Positions 1 through 33,551 of a stretch of DNA of 34,956 bases are shown here, piece by piece. The position numbers and the translations under genes were made by a program. The first letter of the stretch is position 1. Every line of letters starts with the position of its first letter. A model generated the notes under the pieces. The model searched no databases. It saw nothing but the letters and a program-made list of their open reading frames with translations, and was not told where the DNA came from. This DNA is from Folioceros fuciformis (Eukaryota), in assembly GCA_049999805.1 (NCBI GenBank), contig JBNGIO010003097.1, positions 1-34,956 of the forward strand, in the 5' to 3' direction.

Positions 1-65
1 ACATAAAGCACATAGGAATTGTTCCTCTTAGGATGCCGAATGGTCAGTAGAAGAGTCTGCAAGAT

Positions 66-3000
66 GTGTTGCATGTTCCAACCATTACGAAGAACCTGTT
101 GTCTGTTGGACAGATGGCTGAACAAAATCTGCAGGTTCTATTCAATAAAGATGGATGCTTTATTGAAGAATATGACAGAGGCCGCAAACTGATTGCTAAA
201 GGTAGTAGGAATGGACGGATGTTCACTCTGGATGCATCCATTCCAGAGCTAAATGCAGCAATGTTTGCAAATGATGCAGGTGCCATACGTGATGTTGAAA
301 TATGGCATAAGAGGATTGGGCATGGGAACATAGAGAAGCTGAAATCTATGCAACAGAAAAGTGTGGTGGAAGGATTGCCCAAGTTCAAGTATGCTGATCT
401 TGGTCATGTGTGTTCTGCATGTTAATTTGGAAAACAGTCAAGGTTTCTATTTGTGCGATACGTGCAGAACAGCTCGAGACCTTTGCAATTGATACACTCT
501 GATGTATGGGGTCCTTCACAGAATGCATTGTTTGGAGGAGCCCACTACTATGTCTCCTTCATTGATGATTTCAGCAGGTACACATGGCTGTACATACTGA
601 AGCATAAGGATGAAGTGTTCGAGTCTTTCAAGGACTTCAAAAAGCATGCTGAAAATGAATTCAGCTGCTCCATCTCTTGTCTAAGATCAGATGGAGGGGG
701 AGAATATGTCTCAAATGAGTTTGACAGGTATCTTGCAAATCATGGTATACGAAGACAGCTGACTTGCAAATACACACCACAGCAGAATGGTGTTGCAGAG
801 AGGAAGAACAGGGTAGTCATGGAAACAGCAAGGGCAATGCTGAATGAGAAGTGCTTACCTAATGATTATTGGGCAGAAGCAGTGATGACAACAGTGTATG
901 TACTGAATCGAACTCCTACGGCAGGAATTCATGATGCTACACCAATTGAGAGACTATATGGCTATAAGCCGAATATTAGGCACCTGAAAGTGTTTGGGTG
1001 CATTGCATATGTGCATGTGATGAGAAGCGTAGGAAGCTGGATCCTAAAGCAGTGAAGAGTGTTTTTCTGGGGTATGCACGAAATAGGAAGGCATATAAGT
1101 GTTTTGTGCCATCCACACATGAGATCCTGATAAGCAGGGATGTGGTATTTGATGAGTTAGCCTCCCGGTATAGCAACTCAGTTGCACTACCCTATGACAA
1201 ACCCACAGGGGAGAGTACAGTTAAGAGTACTCCAGCAAAGAGTGAGGATGTGACTAATGGTGGATCACCAACGGTGAATCCATGGTATGGAAGACTACGG
1301 AATTGTTTAAATCGAAGACCACTGACCCGGATATGTCAGTGAGGGGGAGAGTAGAAAGCAGCAAAACTGGAAATGATAGATATGAATCCTCAAGTAGTGA
1401 GAGCATTGACAATGAGTTTGGCATTCCATCTGTGGAAACGCCAGGTGCTAAGGAGCAACAATATGCAAGGCAGGTTCAAAATGAACCAAGACCAAGGAGA
1501 TCTGAGAGGGTTAGGAAACCCATTGACAAGTACACCTATACAAGCTACAATGCGCAACATTATGCGTATATGACAAGGGTCACAGCTTGTAAGGAGCCAA
1601 CCAAGTTTGCTGAGGCAGTGACAGATGATAAGTGGTGGCAAGCCATGGATGAAGAATACTCAGCATTAGTTGAGAACGAAACATGGGATTTGGTTCAAGT
1701 GCCTGATGGCAAGGTTCCTATTGGTTCTAAGTGGGTGTACAAGCTGAAGTTAAAGTTTGATGGAACGCTGGAGCGTTACAAGGCCAGGTTGGTTGCAAAG
1801 GGATATGCACAACAGTATGGTCTTGATTATGAGGAAACCTTTAGTCCAGTAGCCAAGATGACAACTGTAAGGACAGTCATAGCATTAGCAGCAGCTAAAG
1901 GATGGAAGTTATGGCAAATGGATGTCAAGAATGCCTTCTTGAATGGTGAGTTGCAGGAGGAAGTGTACGTGGAACAGCCTGAAGGCTATGTTCATCCTAA
2001 GTTTCCAACATACGCCTGCAAACGGAAGAAGGCATTGTATGGACTCAAACAGGCACTTAGAGCATGGAATGCTCGTATCACAAGCTATTTGAAGGAGCGA
2101 GGGTTTGTCATTGGAGACGCAGATCACGGTCTGTTTGTAAAACATACTAAGGTAGGACAAGTGTGTCTTGTCATTTATGTTGACGACCTGATCATAACAG
2201 GAGATGATGCAGATGGTATTGCAGATGTCAAGGCGAATTTGCAAAAAGAGTTCAAGGTGAAGGATCTTGGTGAACTCAGATACTTCTTAGGAATTGAGGT
2301 TGTGTCTACACCTCAAGGAATCTGGCTATTCCAAAAACAATATGCTAAGGATATGTTGCAAAAGTATGGCATGGCAGATTGCAAAGCGATGGATACACCA
2401 TTGGAGCAGAACGTCAAGTTGCAAATGGATGTAGGAGCTGAGCTGGAAAATGTGACTATGTATCGACAGATGGTCGGAAGTTTGATCTACTTGACTATCA
2501 CACGTCCTGATTTAAGTTTTGCAGTGGGACTAATTACTCAATTCATGCAGAACCCAAGGAAACCGCACTTGGATGCAGTTAGAAGAATCATGAGATATGT
2601 GAAAGGAACAACTGAGTTTGGATTACTCTATGAGCATAGGAAGCATCTTGAACTGACAGGATATACAGATGCTGATTGGGCTGGTTGTGCGTATGACAGA
2701 AGATCAACTAGTGGATATGCATTCAGTCTGGGAATTAGTATGATCAGCTGGCAAAGCAAGAAACAACCGACAGTTGATTTGTTAAGCACAGAAGCGGAGT
2801 ATCGAGGAGCTGCAATGGCAGCCTGTGAAACAGCTTGGTTGCAGAAGTTGCTACATGATCTTGGAAATATAGTGAACAGCAAGGTTACAACCTATTGTGA
2901 CAACATGAGTAGCATGAGGTTGGCTATTAATCCTGTGTTTCATGCTCGTTCGAAGCACATAGAAGTACATTATCATTTCATCAGGGAAGCTGTATTATCT

Positions 3001-3123
3001 GAGAAGATAGATCTTCGGCACGTGAAGACCGAAGACCAGGTAGCAGATATCTTTACTAAGTCACTAGGTAGAGATAAGTTCTTACACTTTCGTGAACTAC
3101 TTGGAGTGTTACAAATAGTCTGA
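66..3123 (+). pseudogene. Copia pol polyprotein (integrase-RT-RNase H), disrupted
   Basis: Split across ORFs 66-425, 453-1055, 998-1342 and 1282-3123. In-frame TAA at 423-425 inside the conserved C-x2-C-x-FGK motif; frame changes near 450, 1017 and 1300. Confidence 0.92.
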
Positions 3124-3136: not shown

Positions 3137-3397
3137 TGTTAGAAATCAAGCTCTAACTGAATTGTTACTAAGAGCATACAACACTTAGGATAGTGTAGAT
3201 TATCCCATGTTGAACTCGTAGTTATCTATCACCTAAGTGTTATCAGGATATATCAGGATATACTAGGATATTGCACCCTCGAGACTAAGGCTTACCTTAT
3301 CGAGGGTTGCCCCGCCTGAAGGCTATATATGTAGCATCCTGTGCACCATAAGTAAGGAACTGTGGAGTCCTTCTAGGCCTGTGGTGCTATTTCAACA
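3137..3397 (+). repeat. 3' LTR of copia element 1 (261 bp)
   Basis: Starts TGTT after the PPT and ends AACA (terminal inverted repeat); TATA-like CTATATAT near 3323. The 3' end is supported by the partial copy at 4158-4297, which stops at the same point. Confidence 0.85.
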
Positions 3398-3868
3398 GCA
3401 GTCCTGTAAGCCCACGGCCTAGATCGCAAGGAGCCAGCTCACCAACCGACCCATCACACGTGTTGCCTACGAGTCTTTGCTGGGCAGCGGTATCGCACTG
3501 CTCGGATCTGGCACTTGTCCCCACCCAATGATCGTGCTCAGCATCGGCTCTAGACCTCGAGGGAACTTCCACTTGCCCTTGCTAATCCACTTTCGTGAGG
3601 ACCCACGGCCCGCTTGGGCTGATCCAGGCTTTCTGTGCCTGTGCATGTCTTCGGCGATGCTGAGGGGATGCTCTTGAGCAATCCTATAAGCCCGCGGCCT
3701 GGATCACAAGGAGCCAGCTCACCTACCGCCCCATCACTCGTGTTATCTGCAGGTCTCTGTTGATCAGCTGCGTCACACTACCCCGATCTTGCCCCTGTCA
3801 CCAACCAGTGGTCTTGAGTAGTATCGGCTCTTAACTTCGAGGGAGCTTCTGCCTGCTCTTGTAACTCC
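3398..3868. repeat. Diverged direct repeat, period 280 bp
   Basis: 3398 GCAGTCCTGTAAGCCCACGGCCTAGATCGCAAGGAGCCAGCTCACC aligns with 3678 GCAATCCTATAAGCCCGCGGCCTGGATCACAAGGAGCCAGCTCACC; similarity continues for about 190 bp. Confidence 0.85.
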
Positions 3869-4157
3869 AAGCTTTCTTTTGGACCCGAGACCCTCTTGGA
3901 CTCGCCGAACACCTTGAGCTACACAACTATGGAGACCACATGGTAGATAGGCCTCTTAGAAAATGGGTGATATTTGTTTTTTTGGAGTTTTGATAGAATT
4001 CCTTGAGGACATAATTAGGAAACTATGTTAGATAGGGCTAGATTAGATATGATGATCAGGGGATAGTGGTGGTGCAGTTTAGAAAGGCAAGAATTGTCTA
4101 GCTGACTCGCGGTGCAAAGTAGGGGATGCTTGTGGAGAAGGGTGCCGGCGTGTGCGA

Positions 4158-4297
4158 ATATACTAGGATATTGCACCCTCGAGACTTAGGCTTACCTTAT
4201 CGAGGGTTGCCCCGCTTGAAGGCTATATATGTAGCATCCTGTGCACCATAAGTAAGGAATTGTGGAGTCCTTCTATGCCTGTGGTGCTATTTCAATA
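4158..4297 (+). repeat. 5'-truncated second copy of the element-1 LTR
   Basis: Near-identical to 3258-3397 at an offset of exactly 900 bp; ends TTCAATA versus TTCAACA. Confidence 0.92.
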
Positions 4298-5656
4298 GCG
4301 TAGGCATACCCTTTGGTGTCTAGTACCGAAGAGGTACAACTCTTCAGACACAGGCTATGAAAGCCCACCTCTTGTAATCAATTTTATCAATTAGTAAAGC
4401 ACTATCTTTGATCAAACGCTTCTACAAAGCACTACTAACTAAGCATATAAATATTGGAAAGTAGCTTTGCTTTCTCGACAACACTGCTTTAACATTTTAT
4501 GTGTTTATCTTTTACTAGACTCTAGCAATTCGTGATTCAAAGCCATTGCTGTAGCAACTACGAATGGAAGATGAACAAATCTCAAGGGCATACAACGCAC
4601 CCAAAGCTAATAAAATCTTCTCTCGATGGCCATCATATAGCATTGTCGGTTCTATGCCCTCATGGCTATCCACAGCCTCCTTTGCATGAATTTAGGAAGC
4701 TATCTCACTCTCCTCCCCTTCCATGCCATGTAGGACCCTTCTCAACTATTGTGGCCTCGTAAGAAAATAGTCTATTAGATAATAATTGTGTGTGTACATA
4801 GGCTTCCTATTGAGCAACAAGCTTATCAAGCACCATTATGGGATTATAACAAATTTACTTTGAGGGATACTATAAACATAAGATGTAAACACTTCATCAT
4901 AAACCGTGATGCCAAGACTGTGATGTTTGAAAAAGGAGTTCGGTCAAGAGTACTACTAAATGTCTGTTAAATCCTAGTCATCACCTCAAAGTTATATCTA
5001 GCTACTAGCTCGTGGTAAGTGCTTCATGGCACTGTCGTGATCAATACTTCATGGCATTGATAGATTTGTCATACTGTAAACCGGGCCTAAGCCATTCGTT
5101 TGGTCTAGCCTAATCCGATTCACTGAGGACAACGTAAGCGACTCATCCTGTCCGGATTAGGGCTGTCCATTTGGTCTAGCCTAATGGCAGCATATCAAGC
5201 TTGGTCTCGGCCCCGCAAGTGTAAAACCAATTTTGGGACAAGATCTTAATGAAAAGCCCGATCCCGAGCTTCGGTTCCCATTTCTTTTTTTGGAGGTGGC
5301 CAGTTCCAGAAAAGCCCCAGTCCTCCTTAAATAAAATAAAATGATATAGTTAAAGCTGGGGAGAGTAGCCTCCTTGTGGAATACCGATAGTGACATACAG
5401 TCCTCCATTAGGTTTTTTTTGTTTTAACCATATGTTTTACGTGAATGTTCTAAAGCATCTTCCATGTACATACGGATTTTAGGGCTCCACGTCACATTAC
5501 GAGCTACCATACACTACAATTTTTCTTTTTTTTTCTGTCATTGTCACTTCGATGGATTGATAAGAACCTTGAAGAATCTTCTTTGGAGGAAATCGTGGAA
5601 GCGGGATGAGCACCAAACCCAGCCTCTGTTAGTGGCGCAAGCAAGCCTATGTACAC

Positions 5657-5869
5657 TGTTGATTATTTAATTAATACTTATAGAGCATTGTATATACGTA
5701 GGGCATCGTTCATAACCCTAGATGAATGTTAGTTGGTAGTTGTAACCGTTTTAATGTAGCCAGGACATATTGCTTGTTTCCCTCAACCTTTTTGACAAAT
5801 CTATATATACACATCTTTGCCCTCGGTGTCATGGGTTGCTCAATCTGCCATGAACCTATAAACGGAACA
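5657..5869 (+). repeat. 5' LTR of copia element 2
   Basis: TGTTGATT...GGAACA, 213 bp, matches 12073-12285. Confidence 0.97.
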
Positions 5870-5882
5870 TGGTATCAGAGCC
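5870..5882 (+). promoter_or_regulatory. Primer binding site (tRNA-iMet)
   Basis: TGGTATCAGAGCC directly after the 5' LTR; the canonical plant initiator-Met PBS. Confidence 0.95.
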
Positions 5883-5997
5883 CTGTGGCCTGATCGCCTG
5901 GTTCTGCTATGCATAGGCAGTTTGCTTCTTTGGTGTGTTTGTAAATTGCTTGTTTTTCTGATGGCAATTTGTCTCAAACCCTAGCACACAAGGCAAG

Positions 5998-6471
5998 ATG
6001 CTTCGCAGGCAAATCTGCGAGCATTCTTGGCCAGATCTTGATAAGGGAAAAGGAAGACGCTATTCTGAGCCTGACTTTGAGAAGCTATATTATAAGAAGG
6101 CAACATCTGCTGCCGAAATCGAAGATAGAGCCCAGTTTCTTGGCGCATTTCTTGACTCACAAACATCTGCAGCAAACAGCCGTGCATCAGCATCTGATCC
6201 TGGACAACTATTCAACGTTCAACCAAACTCTCAACGTCAGCAGAAATCCAGAACACGTCCAGAAGTTTTTACAGAACATCAGGCTATTCTTAACTCAATC
6301 CTGAATATCAAGACAACTGTTCTGGAATACACATCTCGAATAGATATTGTTCTAATTAGGCAGGAGCAACTTGAAAGGCTGAGAATTTCAGACCTCATGA
6401 CGATGGCAAAGCAAGAGAGCGACATTAGCAGTCTCAGGGAGTAAATTGCTCGCCTGTCTGCACCAAACTAA
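5998..6471 (+). CDS. Extra ORF upstream of gag (ORF0), unknown function, C-terminal coiled-coil-like segment
   Basis: 148-codon ORF 5998-6444 in the leader, same frame as gag; extends to the TAA at 6469-6471 if the TAA at 6442-6444 is a mutation. Heptad-like C-terminus (...RQEQLERLRISDLMTMAKQESDISSLRE). Confidence 0.55.
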
Positions 6472-6495
6472 TTTGTTCTCGGCTCTGCAGGCATC

Positions 6496-9400
6496 ATGTC
6501 AGGATCAACTAATCTTGACTCAAGATCAGACCGGTTGCAAGATAAGGACCGGCTGACTCCGAGTAATTTCGATGCCTGGAGCTTTAGGGTGCGCTGCATC
6601 CTTGAGGAGAAATTGCTGATGGAAGTGGTTGATGGCAATGTTCCCAAAAAGGTGACTGGTCAGCCATCTAGAACCATGACACCGAACGGGGTAAATCAAG
6701 TACCCTGGACAAGAAAAGATGAGCTTGAGTGGACATACAAAGACAAGAAGGCACGTACCATTCTGGTGGCCTCTGTCTCGCAGGAAATGATTCCTCATAT
6801 AAAGTTGACGCAGTCTTCAAATGAAGTCTGGTCACTGTTATCAGAAACCTATGAGTCGAAGGATATGATAAACTGAAACTGAAGGTTTCAGTTTCAGCCT
6901 TGAGGTAGCTGCAACCCTGCAATTTCAGACACTTCGTATGAGAGAAACTGATTCTGTTGAGAGTCATGTTCCTAAGTTTAGGGCTGCTAGAGCCAAACTA
7001 GCTTCTTGCGGAGTGATCACAGCTGAGTCAAGAGCAGCAGTACAATTATTGCTCTCTCTCCCACCAAGCTTTGAACAGTTCAGTGCTAGCATCCAAACAT
7101 CAGCAGTTGTCACCCTTGCTACAGCAACCACTCCTTCCTCATCTAATCTTACTGTTCAGAAGGTCGTAGCAGCCCTTTTACAGTTTGAAGCAAACAAAAA
7201 GCATATGAAAGGAGGTAGTTCTTCTGCGTCACATAGACAGAGTGACTCTGCCCTCTTCTCTGGGAGGGGTAGAGGACATGGCAGGGGGAGAGGTAGAGGC
7301 AGAGGGGGCTTTGGGAGAGGTAGAGGTCAGTTTCAGCCTTCTACCCCAGCTAGTTCACATCCCAATTCCAATTCCTCGTCTACCACCAAATCAGGAAATT
7401 GTAACTACTGCGGCAAACCTGGTCACTGGATAAAAGATTGTCATAAAAGAATCAGAGATGAAGGCGCTAAAGGCAAACATCCTGCTGAGGCTCATACTGC
7501 TCGAGCCTCCACTCCAAGACTGCTAGTTGCGTGCCTTACCTCATCTAGAAAGGACTGTCAGAGATGGTATCTGGACAGTGGAGCTTCGAACCATATGTGT
7601 TCTAGGAGAAAGTCCTTCATTACGTATGAAGCTTTTCCGACATGTCACCAGACAGCTGTTGTGTTAGGTGACAACTCGACAATTCCAATAAAAGGAACAG
7701 GCACAATACAAGTTACCTTACAGGATGGTAGTTTTCTGCTTTTGGAGAATGCTTTACATGTTCCTGCCATTACCAAGAATCTTGTTAGTACAATGGCACT
7801 TGGGAAAACTAACAAGTATAGAATTACATTCGAAGGAGTGGAGTGTACCATTTATAGGCTGACAGCACCTTCAGTCATCATTGCTCGTGGGAAACCACAG
7901 TTCGATCTGTATCTGCTGGATTTTGTCTCAAACTTACCATCGAATGAGTTTTCTGCACCTGCCACCAGTACGAATGTTATTAAGCAACCTTCAAATGCCT
8001 TTAAGTGGCATTGTAGACTTGGACACCCGAATATCAAAGCTATGAGGCGACTGTTGAAGGAGAAAATGGTAACAGGTTTTGTTGAGGGTGAGTTACCTGA
8101 TCTTGACTTATGTGTTGCCTGTGTCCATGGCAAACAGTTTAAGTCACACTTTGGCAGCGGAAATCCTCGTAAAGCTACAGAATTGCTGGATCTGGTTCAT
8201 ACCGATATTTGTGGACCAATGTCAGTTACCTCATGGGGAGGAGCTCGGTATTTTGTTGTATTTGAAGATGACAGATCCCACTTCACTGTCACTGAGCTCC
8301 TTTGTCACAAGAGTGAGGTGTTCTCCAGCTTTAAGCGTTATCTGGCATATGCAGAACGACAAACAGGCTTTAAGCTTAAGTGTATTCGTTCGGACAATGG
8401 GAAGGAGTACCTTTCCAATGCTTTTCAAGAGTACTGTCAGGAGAAGGGGATTACCAGGCAGTTGACAATCCTGTATCATTCTGACATGAATGGGCGTGCT
8501 GAACGCCGCCACAGGACTATTCAAGATGCTGCAAGGTCACTTCTTTATCAAGGGAGGCTGCCAATACGCTTCTGGGCAGAAGCTGTCCAGGTAGCCACTT
8601 ACTTGCAGAATAGGTCAGCTGTTTCTTCCTTACAGGGTATCACACCTTTTGAAGCCTGGACAGGAAGCAAACCCGATTTGTCACATCTTAGAGTCTTTGG
8701 CAGCACTGCATATTCGCACATTCCTGATCAGCTACGTCATAAGTTTTCTTTTAAGTCTAAAAGACACATCTTCATAGGATACACTCCGGGTATTCATGGC
8801 TACAAATTGTTCGAACCTGTCACAAGGAAGGTGATCCATGCAAGGACTGTTGCGTTTGATGAACGTCTTGTACTGTCCGTTCCTTCCCACTCCTTTAGTG
8901 ACTTTCTCGACGAAGAAACTGTTGAACTTGAGCACTCTGTAGATGCAGGGGAGGAACCACAAGATATCATTAGTTTTCCCGACATAGACCCTTCTGATTT
9001 AGTACAAGATCTTGCACAACTGCCCTTACCGCCTGCTAATCCCAACCCTGGCCAATCCCCGCCAGCCCCTGATGAGAGGTCGTATGGAGATGATCAGCCT
9101 CCCTTGCTCCCACATGATCAGTCAGATGTTGTTGATGATCCTGTCCGCCCTGTCCCGTTACATGATGAGCTGTCTGAGGCCTGGTCTGTGGATGACCCCG
9201 TGGAGTATGTTATTCCTGTCCCTCAGCCAGAACCCCCTAGGCGCTCTACCCGAATTCGGAGACCACCAGAACAGTGGAGAGAGCTTCCTTACAGGAGTGA
9301 AGATTTCAAGAAAGTACCTCGTCCCCATGGTTCTGGCTCTGATGAGGTAGTTGTCGACATGGTGAATCTTTCTCTCAATCCAGGCTATGAGCCTTCTACT

Positions 9401-10993
9401 TATGTTGAGGCCATTAGCGGACAAGACGCTACACACTGGAAAGCGGCTATACAGTCGGAGTATGACTCCCTTATACAAAACAACACGTGGGAGCTCTGTC
9501 CTCCGCCTGTGGGGAGGAAGATAGTTACCTCAAAATGGGTGTTTAAACTCAAATACAAAGCTGATGGAAGCATAGCCAGGTACAAGGCTAGGTTAGTAGC
9601 CCGTGGTTTCTCACAAGTCCCTGGTTTAGACTATCATGACACCTTCTCCCCTGTTGTAAAGGCTCAGTCCCTGAGAGTTCTGTTTGCTATGTCTGCTTTC
9701 TTTTCCCTGCACATCCAGCAAATGGATGTTAAAACGGCATTCCTACATGGGAAATTAGAGGAAGAGATCTTCATGCAGCAGCCTGAGGGATATGAGCTTA
9801 CCGGATGTGAGGATTGGGTGTGTAAGCTCTTGAAGACCTTATATGGTCTCAAACAGAGTACTCGTGCGTGGTACGAGTGCATAGATGAATTTTTGATAGG
9901 TCTAGGCTTCCTTAAAAGCGTTGCTGACACAAACGTGTATCTTCTGCAAGAGAAAGGTGGTTTTGTTATTTTGGCACTCTATGTAGATGATTGTATTTTG
10001 CTGGGAACACACATGGAAGGGATTACCCGTGTTAAAGGTCTGCTGTCGGGTCGTTTCGACATGGTGGATGTTGGAGAGCTTTCCTGCTGCCTTGGAACTC
10101 AGCTTCAGAGAGACACTGTCAGCGGAACATTGTCAGTTCATCAAGAAAAGTACATTTATGATATGTTGTTCAAGTATAAACTTACTGAAGCCAAGACAGC
10201 TCCCAATCCTCTTGAAGCTGGTTGCAAGTTGTCTGTTCAACAGTCTCCACAGACTGCCCAAGAGAAGCATGAGATGGAGGCTGTGCCATACGCACAAGCA
10301 GTGGGGTCACTCATATTTTGCTCAAATCACACTCGACCAGATGTTGCTCTGCCAGTTAGTTTGGTGTCCCAATACCTGAAGGAGCCAGGCAGAGCCCATT
10401 GGTCAGCAACCAAGAGAATTCTGAGGTATCTCAAAGGGACTAGTGGCCATGGAATTCACTACACAAGACGAAGCGATGGAGAGGAAGACCTTACCCTCAT
10501 AGGATACTGTGATGCTGACTGGGCAGCGGACCAAGACACGAGAAGGTCAGTTTCCGCCTATGCCTTCTTGCTTGCAGGTGGAGCAGTTACATGGTCGTCG
10601 AAGAAACAAACAACTGTTTCCTTATCTTCCACCGAAGCAGAATATTCTGCTCTGACTCAAGCTGCGAAGGAAGCAATCTGGCTGCGACGACTCCTAGCGG
10701 ATTTGGGTCAGGAGCAGCAGAGTCCCACAATTATGTATTGTGACAACTAGTCTGCCCTTGCTCTAGCTCGGAATCCAGTTCACCATGCCCGGACTAAGCA
10801 CATAGAAGTGCATCACCACTTTGTGAGGCATGCAGTTGAGACCAAACAGGTGAGGTTAGAGTATATTCCAACTGAGCAGAATGCGGCAGATATACTTACC
10901 AAAGCATTACCTAGGTTGAAGCACCATCAATTCAAAGAGTCTTTAGGAGTCTTAAGTCCACTTCACGTCACAGACAAGTCCAGTCGTAAGTGA
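6496..10993 (+). pseudogene. Copia gag-pol polyprotein with two lesions
   Basis: Gag N-terminus (LTPSNFDAWSFRVRCILEEK), RG-rich tract, CCHC knuckle CNYCGKPGHWIKDC, protease WYLDSGASNHM, HHCC (WHCRLGH...CVAC), integrase (HTDICGP, RSDNGKEY, NGRAERR), RT YVDD, RNase H CDADWA. Disrupted by a frameshifting insert at ~6874-6901 and a TAG at 10748-10750 (YCDN*SAL); the frame continues to 10993. Confidence 0.95.
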
Positions 10994-11270
10994 GGAAACT
11001 ACTGTGAGGCTGATAAGTAGGTATCAAGGTCAGAAACTTATGCTACTTTCTAAGTCCTACCTACTAGTGCCAGCCTATGATGATCCCTTGTCTTCAGAAC
11101 TGGAAGGTGACAGGAATTTAGATCTGCCTCTCCTGTCTGCCTGTTGCAGGCCAACAAAATTGGGATCAAAGTCTGGCCCTTCGTCACTGGTCTCTTCGTC
11201 TGTTTCATCAGTCTAGTTGACACCAGCCTCCTCAGCCATCCTCTCCCTGGATACTGTTGCCATAATCGAA

Positions 11271-11828
11271 TCATTTGGTCAGAACTTTACTGCAGCAGGT
11301 CACACCATGACAATAGTGGGAGTAGCATAGACAAGCTGCGAATTTTGTCATACCGTAGAAGGAGATGAAGTTCCCGTCGTGGCCTCCCCATCTCCACCAA
11401 TTCTGCCGAAACATCATGATTTTAGTTGTTGGGCAGATGTACACCTCCGGCGTTCCAGGGTCGTCAACACCGTCACCGTCAGTGACTACTCTTCTTCCCT
11501 GGTACAGATGCCCTGTCGGAAGCTTGTACTCCCGAGCCTGGAAGTCCTCTGGCAGCACAATCTGGTCAAGACCTTCAGTTAGCTTCTCAGTTCTAGTTTT
11601 CCCATAGTTGAAGGAGCGAGGAGCAGAATTAGAGGTCGAAGCACCAGCTCTCCTTAGGTCAGAGACTTCCTTGGCCAGCTTCTCTTCCCTCGCCTTCGCT
11701 TCCCGTAGTAGTTTCTGCCAGTATTTGGCTCCACCTCTGTCAGCCACTCTCCAAGCAGGTTCCCCATCAGGATGGACCGGACACGGCGGCAGATCTGCAG
11801 CAGGACATGAGCAGATTTTGTGCCTCAT
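11271..11828 (-). CDS. Antisense ORF between pol and the 3' LTR, with a Cys/His motif and coiled coil
   Basis: 185 aa from ATG; the frame stays stop-free for 72 more codons upstream (to 12044). Contains CSC-x7-CPVH, KLLREAKAREEKLAKEVSDLRR and a Cys/His-rich C-terminus. Confidence 0.55.
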   Translation of the reverse strand: MRHKICSCPAADLPPCPVHPDGEPAWRVADRGGAKYWQKLLREAKAREEKLAKEVSDLRRAGASTSNSAPRSFNYGKTRTEKLTEGLDQIVLPEDFQAREYKLPTGHLYQGRRVVTDGDGVDDPGTPEVYICPTTKIMMFRQNWWRWGGHDGNFISFYGMTKFAACLCYSHYCHGVTCCSKVLTK

Positions 11829-12063
11829 GGCTCGAATCCCTAGTGTTTCTCTTGTTGCTGGGGCGGCTGCAGAGAGGCGCTGTGAAGGCAGTGGTCCGTT
11901 CTCAGAGGCGCACTGGAATCCGCCGAGGCTTGCATCGTCAGAAGCTGACAGGTCAATCGGAGCTGCGTGAGCTGGTGTATTCGACGCGAGAGAGAAGACT
12001 GTGCCTGGGCGTACATCTACCTTGTTGTACCCGGTGGTTAATTGTTATATCCGTATATCCAAT

Positions 12064-12072
12064 GAGAGGGGG
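12064..12072 (+). promoter_or_regulatory. Polypurine tract of copia element 2
   Basis: GAGAGGGGG abutting the TG of the 3' LTR. Confidence 0.93.
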
Positions 12073-12285
12073 TGTTGATTATTTAATTAATACCTATAGA
12101 GCATTGTATATACCTAGGGCACCGTTCATAATCCTAGATGAATGTTAGTTGGTAGTTGTAATCGTTTTAATGTAGCCAGGACATATTGCTTGTTTCCCTC
12201 AACCTTTTTGACATATCTATATATACACATCTTTGCCCTTGGTGTCATGGGTTGCTCAATCTGCCATGAACCTATGAACGGAACA
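12073..12285 (+). repeat. 3' LTR of copia element 2
   Basis: 213 bp, TGTTGATT...GGAACA, followed by TSD TACAC. Confidence 0.97.
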
Positions 12286-12408
12286 TACACATTCGTGGAA
12301 TGAGGCCCCAACTCTAATGTTGAAGGGAATTGCGAATCCTAAGCAAGCCTGTGTGGACATTCGTGAAATGAGGCCCCAACTCTGAGATTGAAGGGAATTG
12401 CAAATCCT
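12286..12408. repeat. 68-bp tandem repeat interrupted by copia element 2
   Basis: ATTCGTGGAATGAGGCCCCAACTCT...GAAGGGAATTGCGAATCCT recurs at 12291 and 12359. The start of the first unit (AAGCAAGCCTATGTACAC) lies left of the 5' LTR at 5639-5656. Confidence 0.88.
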
Positions 12409-13000
12409 TTCTACATATTACACACATGCCTTTCATGCTATAAAACTATAAAATCCTTAGACAAGGATGAGCAATTACAAAAAAGGTTGTAGACTAATAC
12501 CCGTTCGTCCGCTGCACTTTCTAAGGTAGGTACAAAGGGCGCACCCTACCCTAAACTATCATCCTCCTATATGGTGAGAGAAAAATAAGTCTTCTCTATC
12601 GGGTGATGGTTGGATCGGGACGCCCTCAAAGCTGCCCACTATATGAGATATATAGCCCACTATATGAGATCGTATAGTATATACGGTGGTATCCCAATGG
12701 GTATTCCAGATCTCCACAATAGAAACCGCTAGACATTAATATTTGTATCTTTCTATTAATATTTTAAATAAATTATATAATATTTACCGTGGATAACGAC
12801 CAAGAAAAGTCGCAGTCCCCCCATCCCCGTCCCCGTTCCCTGCTCGGTCCGGGACCGAGCCTAACAAGGCAAGGCGGTCCCCAGGACTGAAAAAGCACTC
12901 GGTCAAAATGACACCCTGGGACTCCGGACCCGGGGTGACTTGGATCTGCTTTACGAAGCTTGCTACGCACGCTACCATGGAATGGCACCCTCACACCTAA

Positions 13001-20845: not shown

Positions 20846-22248
20846 TCATTGCGAAACACCGAGCCACTTCCCGAAGTTCTCAAACTCTGTGTAATCACTA
20901 TCTGAGACCATGGTCTTGTACCAGGCTTCACCCGCCTTCTTCACGTCCTCTGGGGCAGCTCCCTCGACCTGCCAAACACAAACACAATCACACACAACAA
21001 AGCAGACATGGTCACGCACACAGACGAACACAATGGGAGTTGGTTAAGTAACACCGCTGGGTACGACAAGATGCGGTTGGTTAAGTAACACAGTTGGTTA
21101 AGACAAGATACAAGCAGAGGGGGGAGAAGAAAAGCTCTCACCTGGTTAGGCTGCTTCCTCTTGCTGTCCAGCTTCTGTGCCCTAGCCTTGGTCTGCTGGG
21201 CCTGGGCCAAAAGCTCCATCCTCCTAACAGTCTTGGCGTACGGGTTGAGCTTCAGGAGGGCTCCCAGATTCTTGAGCGGGTTCTTTTTCAGGGCTCTCGT
21301 CTTCACCTCCGTCTTCATGGGCCGGACCACGGACTGGATCTCATCAGAGTTGATGAGCCGAGCTAGGTCAGAGTTAGCCATGAGGGGGCGAGGTAGGGTG
21401 TAGTTCTTCTTCACAGCCGACTTCCTGTCTACCGTCCCAAAGATGGAGTCCAGCTTCTCGAAAGCAGACTTCGTCCAAACCACAAACCGGCCAAGATGGC
21501 CACCAGGAGCCAGCTGCAGCAGGTTGAGCCGGTCCACAGACACGATCTCCACACCAGGGATGTTCCTAAACGCCTTGACCAGCTTCGCGCCCTCGGTGCC
21601 GTACACGATCAGCGGGCCCCTGCGGGACACATATCTCCTGTTCCTCATCTTCCCCTTCCCAGCCCGGATGTTGCGGGTGGCCTTAACTTTTTCCACATCA
21701 TCGTACGCTCCCACCTTCTTCAGCAGATTCACAGCCGCCGAGGTCTTCTCGATGCCCTCCACGGCATCGCTGAGCACGAGCGGCACCTCCGGCACCTTCT
21801 CGATGCGATGGCCCCGAGCTAGCACTAATGCTGGAACTGCGGACGCAGCCAGGGCAGACACAACCGCGTACCTCTTTTGATTGATGTTCACCTTGCGGTG
21901 CCAGCGCCTCCAAACCTTGGTGGGAGCAAACATGTGCCCTCCTCGGCACATGTTGCCGAAGGCTCCCTGCCCGGCTCTGTGAGTTCCACCTCCCTGAACA
22001 CGAGGAATTCTGGACACAGCCCTGCCTGTCCCCCATGACTCCGCCGACGTCTGATGCCCCGCCTTGCTACTCACAGCGTAAGGCTGCCTCTTGTTCTTCG
22101 CCAAATTGGTGTGCACAAACTGCACGATGTCAGACCTGATCGGCGCCTTGAACACCTCCGGCAGCGGCGTCTGGTTGCCTCGCCCGTCTGCTGCGCCAAC
22201 ATCGGATTCCGCCAACTGGACTGTAACTAGCGGGCGGGCAGCCGCCAT
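20846..22248 (-). CDS. RPL4: 60S ribosomal protein L4 (uL4), copy A; exons 22248-21142 and 20968-20846, 409 aa
   Basis: [23 protein letters not shown] and [10 protein letters not shown] motifs; plant C-terminus [25 protein letters not shown]; 173-bp GT-AG intron 21141-20969. Confidence 0.97.
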
Positions 22249-31523: not shown

Positions 31524-32861
31524 ATGGCGGCACGTCCTCTGGTCACGGTGCAGGTGTTGGAAGGCGATGGCGCTGCAGGAGATGGTGGCGTGGTGCAGGC
31601 TCCGTTGCCCGAGGTATTCAAGGCGCCAATCCGGTCCGATATTGTACAGTTTGTGCACACCAATCTGGCGAAGAACAAGAGACAGCCCTACGCTGTGAGC
31701 AGCAAGGCTGGGCACCAGACGTCCGCGGAGTCATGGGGTACTGGCAGAGCTGTGTCCAGGATTCCTCGTGTTCCTGGTGGCGGGACTCACCGAGCTGGGC
31801 AGGGAGCTTTCGGCAACATGTGTCGTGGGGGTCGCATGTTTGCTCCCACTAAGATCTGGAGGCGCTGGCACCGCAAGGTGAACACCAACCAGAAGAGGTA
31901 TGCTATTGTGTCGGCTCTCGCGGCTTCCGCGGTGCCCGCTCTGGTGCTGGCTCGGGGCCACCGCATCGAGAAGGTGCCGGAGGTGCCGCTGGTGTTAAGC
32001 GATTCTGTTGAGGGCATCGAGAAGACCTCGGCCGCCGTGAAGTTGCTGAAGAGGATCGGCGCGTACGAGGATGTGGAGAAGGTGAAGGCCAGTCACAACA
32101 TTCGGGCAGGGAAGGGAAAGATGAGGAACCGAAGGTACGTGTCTCGCAGGGGCCCTCTGATTGTTTACGGCACTGAAGGCGCCAAGTTGGCAAAAGCCTT
32201 CAGGAACATCCCCGGTGTGGAAATTTCTTCGGTGGATCGCCTCAACCTGCTGCAGCTGGCACCTGGTGGCCACCTCGGGCGGTTCGTGGTGTGGACTAAG
32301 TCCGCTTTCGAGAAGTTGGACCACATTTTTGGAACAGTGGACAAGAAGTCGGAGGTGAAGAAGAACTACACTCTCCCTCGCTCCATCATGGCCAACCCTG
32401 ACCTGGCTCGTCTCATCAACTCCGACGAGATTCAGTCCGTGGTCCGGCCCATCAAAACGGAGGTCAAGAGGAGAGCCCTGAAGAAGAACCCGCTGAAGAA
32501 TCTGGGTGCCCTCCTGAAGCTCAACCCGTTCGCCAAGACTGCCAGGAGAATGGAGTTGCTGGCCCAGTCCCAGAGGGTCAAGGCTAGGGCAGAGAAGCTG
32601 AGCAGCAAGAGGAAGCAGCCCAACCAGGTGAAATCATTGTTTCCTCTTCCCTCCACTCGCCCCAATCAGCTCCGTTCCTTCAATGCTATTGTCGGTTGTC
32701 CCCTGCATGACACCCAATCGTTGTGCCCCCTGTATCAGGCCGAGGGAGCTACTCCAGAGAAGGTGAAGCAGGCCGGTGAGGCCTGGTACAAGACCATGAT
32801 TTCTGATAGTGATTACACAGAATTTGAGAACTTCGGCAAGTGGCTCGGTGTCTCACAATGA
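31524..32861 (+). CDS. RPL4: 60S ribosomal protein L4 (uL4), copy B; exons 31524-32627 and 32739-32861, 408 aa
   Basis: Same motifs as copy A; 111-bp GT-AG intron 32628-32738 at the same position (KQPNQ|). Confidence 0.97.
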
Positions 32862-33075: not shown

Positions 33076-33551
33076 GGTGCAAATATTTTTCGAATTGGAT
33101 TGCTTGCAATTGTTCCCTCGGGTAGGCATGCGGATTGCTTACTGGTAGGGGCAATGGTTCCCTCGAACAGGATTGCTTACTGCTTGGGTGCAAGTGTTGC
33201 CTCGAATAGGATTGCTCACTTTTTGGGTGCAATTGTTCCCTCGAATAGGATTGTTTACTGCAGGGGTGCAATTGTTCCTTCGAATTGTACTGCTTACTGC
33301 TAGGGTGCAGTTGTTCACTCGAATAGGATTGCTTTCTGGTAGGGTGCAATTGTTCGTCGAACATGAATGCGTTTAGCCAGCGGGTATTCGATCCTCGAAT
33401 AGGAGTGCTTGCATTCAAGGTGTAATTATTTGTCGTGTAGGAGTGCTTGCAGGCAAGGCGTAATTGTTCGTCGTGTAGGAGTGCTTGCATGCAAGGTGCA
33501 ACTGTTCGTCTCGTAGGAATGCTTGCAGGCAAAGTGAAATTGTTCCTCGAA
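33076..33551. repeat. Minisatellite with 39-bp and 38-bp subtypes
   Basis: Units of GCAATTGTTCCCTCGAATAGGATTGCTTACTGCTTGGGT type start at 33151, 33190, 33229, 33268, 33307 and 33346. Related 38-bp units (GTAATTGTTCGTCGTGTAGGAGTGCTTGCAGGCAAGG) follow from ~33422. Confidence 0.92.

Follow-up and report, generated by a model that had tools for sequence, protein, structure and literature searches.

The stretch between positions 5657 and 12285 of a Folioceros fuciformis contig (JBNGIO010003097.1, analysed over its 34,956 nucleotides, which we call the window) raises the question of whether a Ty1/copia retrotransposon can carry two genes besides gag-pol, one ahead of gag and one in antisense orientation behind pol. 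To our knowledge, the accessory genes of plant LTR retrotransposons are found almost only in Ty3/gypsy lineages and in SIRE, and none of them has a settled function. The reading that we prefer, to which we give a chance just under even, is that of a disabled copia insertion with two orphan frames that most likely coded for proteins when the element was mobile.

An aged and disabled Ty1/copia insertion

We read the stretch as a single old insertion of a Ty1/copia LTR retrotransposon in a land-plant genome, disabled by mutation. It is bounded by direct repeats, 5657-5870 and 12073-12286, with 96% similarity. Aligned at 213 bp (5657-5869 and 12073-12285, both on the forward strand), the two LTRs differ at 8 positions (6 transitions and 2 transversions; K2P 0.039), and each starts with TG and ends with CA. 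The same five bases, TACAC, stand at both ends of the element (5652-5656 and 12286-12290) as a 5-bp target-site duplication. The flanks consist of tandem repeat units of about 68 nt, and the borders could be fixed independently because the next uninterrupted unit is colinear across the insertion point. A 12-mer starting with TGG directly after the 5' LTR (5870-5881, forward strand) is the putative primer binding site, which we take to match the 3' end of the initiator tRNA-Met; no tRNA gene was found within the 35-kb window. At the other end, a polypurine tract (12064-12072, forward strand) abuts the 3' LTR. Direct LTRs, TG..CA ends and a 5-bp duplication are features expected of Ty1/copia elements (Pseudoviridae), and the 213-bp LTRs and intact ends given in the preliminary description were confirmed.

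The domain order is gag-PR-INT-RT-RH, with the integrase ahead of the RT as in Ty1/copia. Pfam searches identified a weak DUF4219 match (residues 20-45) and Retrotran_gag_2, followed by a zinc knuckle (154-170), Pol_BBD (210-290), gag_pre-integrs (324-400), rve (419-514), SH3_retrovirus (575-643) and RVT_2 (848-1093). The N-terminal part of gag with Retrotran_gag_2 (6496-6876, forward strand) ends at a premature stop (6874-6876), and tblastn with the relatives P0015 and P0017 placed a frame change between 6858 and 6881. Near-identical contigs of another individual or haplotype, which tile the element, and some more diverged pieces served for comparison; in those of run X1, this part of gag is not of the same length as in the window. 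The remaining gag-pol (6881-10993, forward strand), with zinc knuckle, protease barrel, integrase, RT and RNase H, is interrupted in the RNase H by an in-frame TAG at 10748-10750. The uninterrupted gag-pol of an autonomous copy is thus not present, and the description of the element as intact-ended holds for its ends but not for its polyprotein. The RT is 50.4% identical to its best relative among the 120 homologues listed, none of which is close; the highest-ranking ones are all unnamed contig proteins. No large family of the element is visible.

Two open frames outside the polyprotein

The 626-nt leader (5870-6495, forward strand) contains ORF0 (5998-6444, forward strand), which spans 148 aa from its ATG and 160 codons from stop to stop (5962-6444). 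When the leader was shuffled with its dinucleotides preserved, 9 of 2000 sequences had an open frame as long, as did 2 of 3000 shuffles of the 483 nt of ORF0 itself. The proposed frame has no stop over the region, whereas the five remaining frames have 5, 14, 8, 6 and 10, and its score for copia-trained codon usage is +0.20, the others scoring -0.18 or lower. Behind pol, the spacer from 10994 to 12063, which is not similar to any other part of the window, holds an open frame on the reverse strand (11271-12044). It is 257 codons long from stop to stop, with a first ATG at 11828 that would give a protein of 185 aa. Neither 2000 dinucleotide shuffles nor 3000 shuffles in a second test produced a frame of this length, and its lack of stops compares with 10, 6, 7, 11 and 16 in the other five frames; over 11274-12044 the sense frames hold 10, 6 and 7. 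The codon score is -0.008, against -0.10 or lower in the other frames. The preliminary description had reported about 0.5 kb of extra coding capacity before gag and about 0.8 kb of open antisense frame after pol; both sizes are correct, and both frames are longer than chance predicts.

The composition of the two frames is coding-like. Both have the codon-position make-up of pol, with a first position rich in G and poor in T. The antisense protein consists of 23% D+E+K+R and 24% L+S+F+P, like the real proteins of the window, whereas the overlapping sense frame, with 14% and 39%, has the make-up of a shadow frame.

The leader is depleted in ATGs. It has 5 where 11.9 are expected (as few in 4 of 1000 shuffles), namely those of two short uORFs at 5909 and 5961, that of ORF0 at 5998, and two at 6397 and 6403 in frame within ORF0. 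Only these last two, both in frame, fall within the 495 nt that follow the ORF0 start, where 8.1 are expected (as few in 5 of 1000 shuffles), and only 0.8% of 1380 equal-sized segments across the whole 35 kb have two or fewer. A long non-coding leader that is scanned by ribosomes is equally expected to be poor in ATGs.

Searches for relatives of the two frames were negative. At E 0.1 or better, Pfam gave no match for either, bar one noise hit. A word-indexed search of 5.8 billion proteins yielded no homologue among 1536 candidates for the antisense frame and none among 9 for ORF0, and two metagenome scans gave nothing for either ORF. The best ESM Atlas scores of the two ORFs, 0.75 and 0.81, are within the range of shuffled proteins. 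A full HMMER search of 1.84 billion representatives with the antisense frame gave no credible homologue and only two hits. Both are tandem-repeat proteins matched in seven weak stretches, and we read them as spurious. AlphaFold, run on single sequences, gave a poor model for the antisense protein (mean pLDDT 36.9) and only a long helix for ORF0 (pLDDT 63.7), the C-terminal helix being predicted at residues 89-147.

These negative results bear on the possibility that both frames are non-functional, that is, relics or chance ORFs in a long leader and a long spacer between pol and the LTR. The leader would then be a scanned non-coding 5' UTR, which explains the ATG depletion, and the spacer may act as RNA or DNA (an antisense transcript or regulatory sequence) and code for no protein. 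We consider this rather unlikely. Neither ORF has a homologue, a domain or a confident fold, and upstream ATGs precede both: the two uORFs in the leader and, if an antisense transcript began in the LTR, nine ATGs ahead of the one at 11828, among them those of two ORFs (58 and 31 codons) in another frame. Odds of roughly 1 in 1000 also impress less once it is considered that the frames were picked by a reader who was looking for long ORFs, and passages of the survey by Neumann et al. (PMC6317226) call extra-ORF proteins highly heterogeneous and doubt their function. Against this reading, two independent frames of one element have no stops where the other frames have 5-16, only 0-9 of 2000-3000 shuffles are as long, and the coding-like codon-position and amino-acid make-up is found in exactly these frames. 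A role as structured RNA is unsupported, as neither region folds better than its shuffles (z of -1.41 and +0.20) or has an Rfam match.

Coding-like composition together with the absence of any retroelement domain would also fit captured fragments. One or both ORFs would then derive from host genes or other mobile elements, taken up by transduction or template switching and carried as passive cargo, coding in origin with no role in the life cycle. Gene capture by LTR retrotransposons is documented (PMC7264820). Moreover, exact look-up of the single-exon DUF4291 protein encoded beside the element found none in the protein collection; the host proteome is therefore apparently missing from it, and a lineage-restricted host parent gene would go unseen. 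We nevertheless judge capture quite unlikely. Nothing similar lies elsewhere in the 35-kb window, and no organism of the library has a homologue, though conserved host genes usually have relatives. Captured genes are usually in sense orientation (PMC7264820), whereas the larger ORF here is antisense. Finally, the GC3 values of ORF0 and the antisense frame (0.37 and 0.52) differ from the 0.58-0.73 of the window's host genes, and that of ORF0 resembles pol (0.41).

Possible expression of the two frames

If the frames were coding, as we prefer to read them, ORF0 (helical and coiled-coil-like) would be the first cistron of a bicistronic genomic RNA. Its ATG has a moderate context, with A at -3 and C at +4. 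Because of this context, and because no out-of-frame ATG occurs in the following 495 nt, part of the scanning ribosomes could reach the gag ATG. The ATG-depleted leader fits such a badnavirus-like scheme, in which ORF0 is translated first and gag is reached by leaky scanning. Alternatively, ribosomes may reinitiate at gag once they have translated the short in-frame ORF from 6403, an ATG of strong context. ORF0 would then be an accessory protein and also a throttle on the translation of gag-pol.

The contigs used for comparison bear on the end of ORF0. Its stop reads as a sense codon in two contigs each of runs X1 and X2, which makes the frame 9 codons longer, so the end of ORF0 is not fixed. 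No length change within ORF0 is among the differences listed; its substitutions between window and contigs are few and, in our own reading, more often protein-changing than silent. For the antisense frame, the only length change among those listed is a +1/-1 pair 3 nt apart.

Another model denies ORF0 the status of a separate gene. It would have been an in-frame N-terminal extension of Gag in the functional progenitor, with a long isoform from 5998 and a short one from 6496, comparable to the N-terminally extended glyco-Gag of murine leukaemia virus, and would here be cut off by stops. ORF0 does lie in the frame of gag, and just two stops (at 6442 and 6469) separate them, the first of which is the one replaced in those contigs. 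The predicted polyproteins of the relatives P0010 and P0015 also start about 50-60 residues further upstream than this gag, as calculated from tblastn coordinates, although these starts may be artefacts of gene prediction. We find a Gag extension very unlikely. The stop at 6469 is not among the contig differences listed, a shared frame has a chance of one in three, and the usual N-terminal gag domains (the weak DUF4219 match and Retrotran_gag_2) begin right after 6496. In addition, the stretch by which P0010 is longer at its N terminus is not similar to ORF0.

Returning to the reading as a separate accessory gene, the antisense frame would be expressed from a transcript of its own that begins within the 3' LTR or close to it, as in the antisense genes of gypsy elements of the Grande, RIRE2 and Retand type. 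Its 185-aa product would have a helix in the middle and ends rich in Cys and His. What the sequence shows is the anatomy of the element, two frames that are open beyond chance, their coding-like make-up and the scarcity of ATGs; translation, leaky scanning, the antisense transcript and any function are inferred. A role in silencing suppression or in targeting, which had been suggested for the extra ORFs, is pure conjecture. In a bolder version, which we hold to be unlikely, the element would stand for a deep-branching plant Ty1/copia lineage with an ambisense genome of three genes: a small coiled-coil ORF0 read from the genomic RNA through a badnavirus-like leaky-scanning leader, the polyprotein, and behind pol an antisense gene with its own transcript. 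Regulated transposition would require both accessory proteins, each of them either of de novo origin or too diverged to be recognised.

Comparison with known systems

The picture of accessory genes would, if this reading is true, be widened by a copia family that has both a cistron ahead of gag and an antisense gene, and an upstream cistron bypassed as in pararetroviruses would make the translation mechanism directly testable. The case rests on one damaged copy, and what it offers is a lead towards a family that deserves to be collected in the genomes of the host and of related species.

The preliminary description had placed sense 3' ORFs in Sireviruses, antisense ORFs mostly in Tat-type Ty3 elements and extra 5' ORFs mainly in Ty3 Ogre elements, in agreement with PMC7264820, PMC4093653 and PMC6317226. 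Neumann et al. (2019) counted extra ORFs of at least 250 codons in 582 Ty1/copia elements, in 45 similarity groups, and defined four classes by position and orientation (PMC6317226). Extra ORFs in copia are thus of a known kind, and the element is a possible variant among plant copia elements already recorded in surveys. It shares with the REXdb copia elements that have extra ORFs the copia domain order, the 5-bp duplication, a putative primer binding site of the type that starts directly after the LTR and the position of the ORFs outside the polyprotein. The survey classes eORF-5'F and eORF-3'R correspond to the two positions seen here, although ORF0, with 160 codons, is below the 250-codon cut-off (passages of PMC6317226). 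As the survey has it in the part concerned, only the sense 3' ORF of SIRE marks a copia group, copia elements being otherwise alike in structure (PMC6317226). The sense env-like ORF that SIRE (Sirevirus) has between pol and the 3' LTR is absent here, where the sense frames hold 6-10 stops.

An antisense ORF that lies, as here, behind pol and ahead of the 3' LTR is described for Ty3/gypsy families, namely Grande, RIRE2, Retand and 15 families of bean, pvRetro13 among them (PMC7264820, PMC4093653, PMC6317226). Position and orientation are the same in Grande gene23 (maize), RIRE2 (rice), Retand ORF4 (Silene), pvRetro13 ORF2 (bean) and the fungal Boty, which likewise lack similarity to known proteins. 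The backbone of the present element is not the Ty3/gypsy (Tat/Retand) one. Those gypsy elements have long internal regions and ORFs conserved across copies and species, some with Transposase_28 or SMC-like domains, whereas our element is a copia known from one damaged copy and its antisense ORF has no domain. Expression from an own promoter was demonstrated for Grande (PMC7264820) and would be assumed by analogy here.

On the 5' side, rice Retrosat2 is reported to have an ORF0 (PMC4093653). The arrangement seen here, a sense frame that follows the 5' LTR and precedes gag, is shared by Ogre ORF1 and the ORF0 of Retrosat2/FRetro3, which belong to the other superfamily. The extra ORFs of Ogre have a plant mobile domain (passages of PMC6317226), which is absent here, and ORF0 is much shorter. 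For the leader, the nearest model is that of the pararetroviruses, rice tungro bacilliform virus and the badnaviruses, in which some of the scanning ribosomes leak past long ORFs free of AUGs and so reach the polyprotein ORF behind them (passages of PMC5902531). There the mechanism is experimentally proven, whereas the present case is known from sequence and has two short uORFs and two in-frame ATGs near the end of ORF0, one of them strong. What the element would have in common with these viruses is an accessory ORF ahead of the polyprotein on one RNA, with a sub-optimal start and no internal out-of-frame AUGs.

Borders and state of the element

The element at 5657-12285 is bounded by direct repeats of 213 bp each, the 5' LTR (5657-5869) and the 3' LTR (12073-12285), which are 96% alike and both start with TG and end with CA. 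Aligned to each other, they differ at 8 sites, by 6 transitions and 2 transversions (K2P 0.039). As read from the sequence, the pentamer TACAC is present at both element ends as a target duplication, and a primer binding site begins with TGG at 5870; a purine run (12064-12072) adjoins the 3' LTR. The insertion site is a short tandem array with a unit of about 68 nt (5588-5656 and 12289-12424), the right side holding two units with 90% likeness over 52 nt, the left side one more diverged unit. The next unit, uninterrupted across the insertion point, serves within the window as an empty-site control for both the borders and the target duplication. The Pfam domains (Retrotran_gag_2, zinc knuckle, Pol beta-barrel, gag_pre-integrase, integrase core, SH3-like, RVT_2) stand in Ty1/copia order. 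Searching with the polyprotein retrieved 3071 proteins at E <= 1e-20 among 7999 scored candidates. Judged by sequence identity, it appears isolated among the 120 matches listed of these 3071, where the best full-length identity was 38%, the best RT identity 50.4% and the top matches were all unnamed contig proteins.

The copy is not intact. Homology of gag to its relatives runs in one frame until 6858 and in another from 6881, with a stop at 6874-6876, and the RNase H reading frame is interrupted by a TAG at 10748-10750. Contigs of X1 and X2, two DNA sequencing runs from one sample, tile the element, and their length departs from the window precisely at the gag break. The X1 contigs differ from the window at 51 places over about 6.3 kb (summed over five pieces). 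As this divergence of about 0.8% is well under the 3.8% between the LTRs, the X1 and X2 contigs are taken to represent this insertion in a second individual or haplotype rather than an independent sibling. At 5698, 5706 and 5798, three of the eight sites where the LTRs differ, they carry the 3'-LTR letter; the LTRs of that individual may be more alike, or the two may have been collapsed in the contigs. The 259 X1 pieces on the element comprised 10 that were at least 99% alike, 12 at 95-99%, 26 at 90-95% and 211 below 90%, the last concentrated on integrase and RT. They give no sign of a large family, though contig depth is not equivalent to copy number. The contigs of run X3 differed from the window by C>T at 512 places and by G>A at 561 over 5400-12072, against 5-34 for the other types of change; this looks like a bisulfite-type library, unusable for substitution analysis. 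Run X4, guessed to be RNA, gave only 4 pieces, all below 90% alike and on conserved pol or gag.

Further features were noted elsewhere in the window. A second, unrelated Ty1/copia fragment at 51-3123 (forward strand; integrase, RT and RNase H) is truncated by the window start, has several frame changes and is without a large ORF after pol. It showed no similarity to the extra regions of the studied element and shares with it only a 65-nt RNase H stretch at 71% identity. Between the two copia elements lie two pairs of direct repeats, 3258-3399 and 4158-4299 (142 nt, 96%, 900 nt apart) and 3397-3589 and 3677-3869 (193 nt, 76%, 280 nt apart). Two paralogous uL4 (RPL4) genes are inverted, at 20941-22248 (reverse strand) and 31524-32861 (forward strand), with arms of 1118 nt that are 83% complementary and 9.3 kb apart. 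One open frame covers almost all of each; in the second, the C-terminal part apparently resumes after an unrelated stretch that stays in frame and may be an intron. The host is a green plant and probably a land plant; in the PDB, the uL4 of the window matched four uL4 chains, which we take to be from plant ribosomes, at about 600 bits and the animal chains at about 495. A tandem repeat of a 39-nt unit at 33148-33355 (four overlapping 91-nt copies, 81-82% alike) sits within an open frame of 242 aa that has no Pfam match. Within the studied element, a nested insertion in the spacer after pol was considered and rejected, the inverted and direct repeats there being short and at chance level.

Two additional open frames

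ORF0 (5998-6444, forward strand) encodes 148 aa, or 160 codons from stop to stop, in the leader ahead of gag; the antisense frame (11271-12044, reverse strand) has 257 codons, with 185 aa from its first ATG at 11828, and lies between pol and the purine tract. Neither frame contains a stop, against 5, 14, 8, 6 and 10 in the five other frames of the ORF0 stretch and 10, 6, 7, 11 and 16 in those of the antisense stretch. Dinucleotide-preserving shuffles matched the length of ORF0 in 9 of 2000 cases (leader) and that of the antisense frame in none of 2000 (spacer); when only the bases of each ORF were shuffled, the counts were 2 and 0 of 3000. Both are close to pol in codon-position composition. 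With a codon score trained on the window's copia genes, ORF0 scored +0.20 in the proposed frame versus -0.18 or lower in the others, and the antisense frame -0.008 versus -0.10 or lower. Opposite the latter, the sense strand is open for 203 codons with one stop, and its translation is 39% L+S+F+P with 14% charged residues. In the antisense protein these shares are 24% and 23%, as in the real proteins of the window; given this difference in make-up, we regard the antisense frame as primary and the opposite one as a shadow of it. Chance is very unlikely for both frames, which look coding. The two frames put forward in the preliminary description stand, but the element that carries them is damaged, at the gag break and at the RNase H TAG.

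Apart from one noise match, no Pfam family was found for either frame. A word-indexed search of 5.8 billion proteins yielded no homologue of the antisense frame (1536 candidates) or of ORF0 (9 candidates), and two metagenome scans gave no match to either. The best ESM Atlas scores, 0.75 and 0.81, fell among those obtained with shuffled sequences. Run in full over 1.84 billion representatives, HMMER matched the antisense frame to two proteins, P0001 and P0002; both are tandem-repeat proteins matched in seven weak stretches, and we rejected them as spurious. Single-sequence AlphaFold models (antisense protein, pLDDT 36.9, one helix at residues 96-135; ORF0, pLDDT 63.7, a confident helix at 89-147) were too poor for fold comparison. 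By exact look-up, none of three valid query proteins was present in the protein collection. The host proteome seems to be missing from it, since the single-exon DUF4291 protein adjoining the element was absent. Internal ORFs of repeats are rarely annotated, and for both reasons the blanks are weaker than they appear. The frames could instead be captured fragments, carried passively, a reading we consider improbable; the extra regions have no similarity elsewhere within the 35-kb window.

The leader and a proposed route to gag

The 626-nt leader contains 5 ATGs where 11.9 are expected (as few in 4 of 1000 shuffles), and the 495 nt downstream of the ORF0 start contain 2 instead of 8.1 (5 of 1000 shuffles), both in frame and near the end of ORF0. 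Only 0.8% of 1380 equal-sized windows across the 35 kb have two ATGs or fewer; gag-pol, by contrast, has 20 per kb. This pattern of ATGs means that ribosomes would scan the leader on their way to gag. Around the ORF0 ATG, position -3 is A and position +4 is C. We give about even odds to a reading with two orphan accessory genes, in which ORF0 is the first cistron, translated ahead of gag, with gag reached by leaky scanning, and the antisense gene is expressed from a separate transcript.

ATG depletion alone does not distinguish between a leader that encodes ORF0 and one that is non-coding. Both frames could be non-functional relics, one lying in a leader that is scanned and the other in a long spacer, and the function of extra ORFs has been doubted in general (Neumann et al. 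2019, PMC6317226, accessible portion). We hold this to be a serious though rather unlikely explanation beside the shuffling and codon results. That ORF0 is an in-frame upstream extension of Gag is the least probable account. The two do share a frame, with stops at 6442 and 6469 between them; in the contigs the first of these is a sense codon, so ORF0 would be 9 codons longer there. P0010, a longer relative, has no ORF0-like part.

A leader repeat (5941-6000 and 6441-6498, each ending at an ATG) was considered as a duplication of the start region or as a pair of splice sites and rejected, its local alignment containing only an exact 10-mer and being equalled in score by 232 of 1000 shuffles. 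With the repeat at chance level, a leader intron with ORF0 inside was also dropped. For structured RNA, there was no Rfam match in the two extra regions, whose folding z-scores were -1.41 and +0.20.

Comparison with described elements

Extra ORFs of at least 250 codons were reported in 582 Ty1/copia elements, in 45 similarity groups and classed as 5' or 3' and forward or reverse; in the accessible portion of that paper, only the sense 3' ORF of SIRE is named as typical for a copia group (Neumann et al. 2019, PMC6317226). Antisense 3' ORFs are known from Grande, RIRE2, Retand, pvRetro13 and the fungal Boty (Vicient and Casacuberta 2020, PMC7264820). The accessible portion of Gao et al. 2014 (PMC4093653) assigns pvRetro13 and 14 further antisense-ORF families to Ty3/gypsy and mentions an ORF0 in rice Retrosat2. 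In the literature searched, taken in part and outside the per-group supplementary ORF lists of PMC6317226, no description turned up of a copia element that combines a 5' ORF in sense with a 3' ORF in antisense orientation. The ATG-cleared leader with ORF0 resembles the upstream ORFs, likewise cleared, in rice tungro bacilliform virus and badnaviruses, for which leaky scanning through these ORFs has been demonstrated (PMC5902531).
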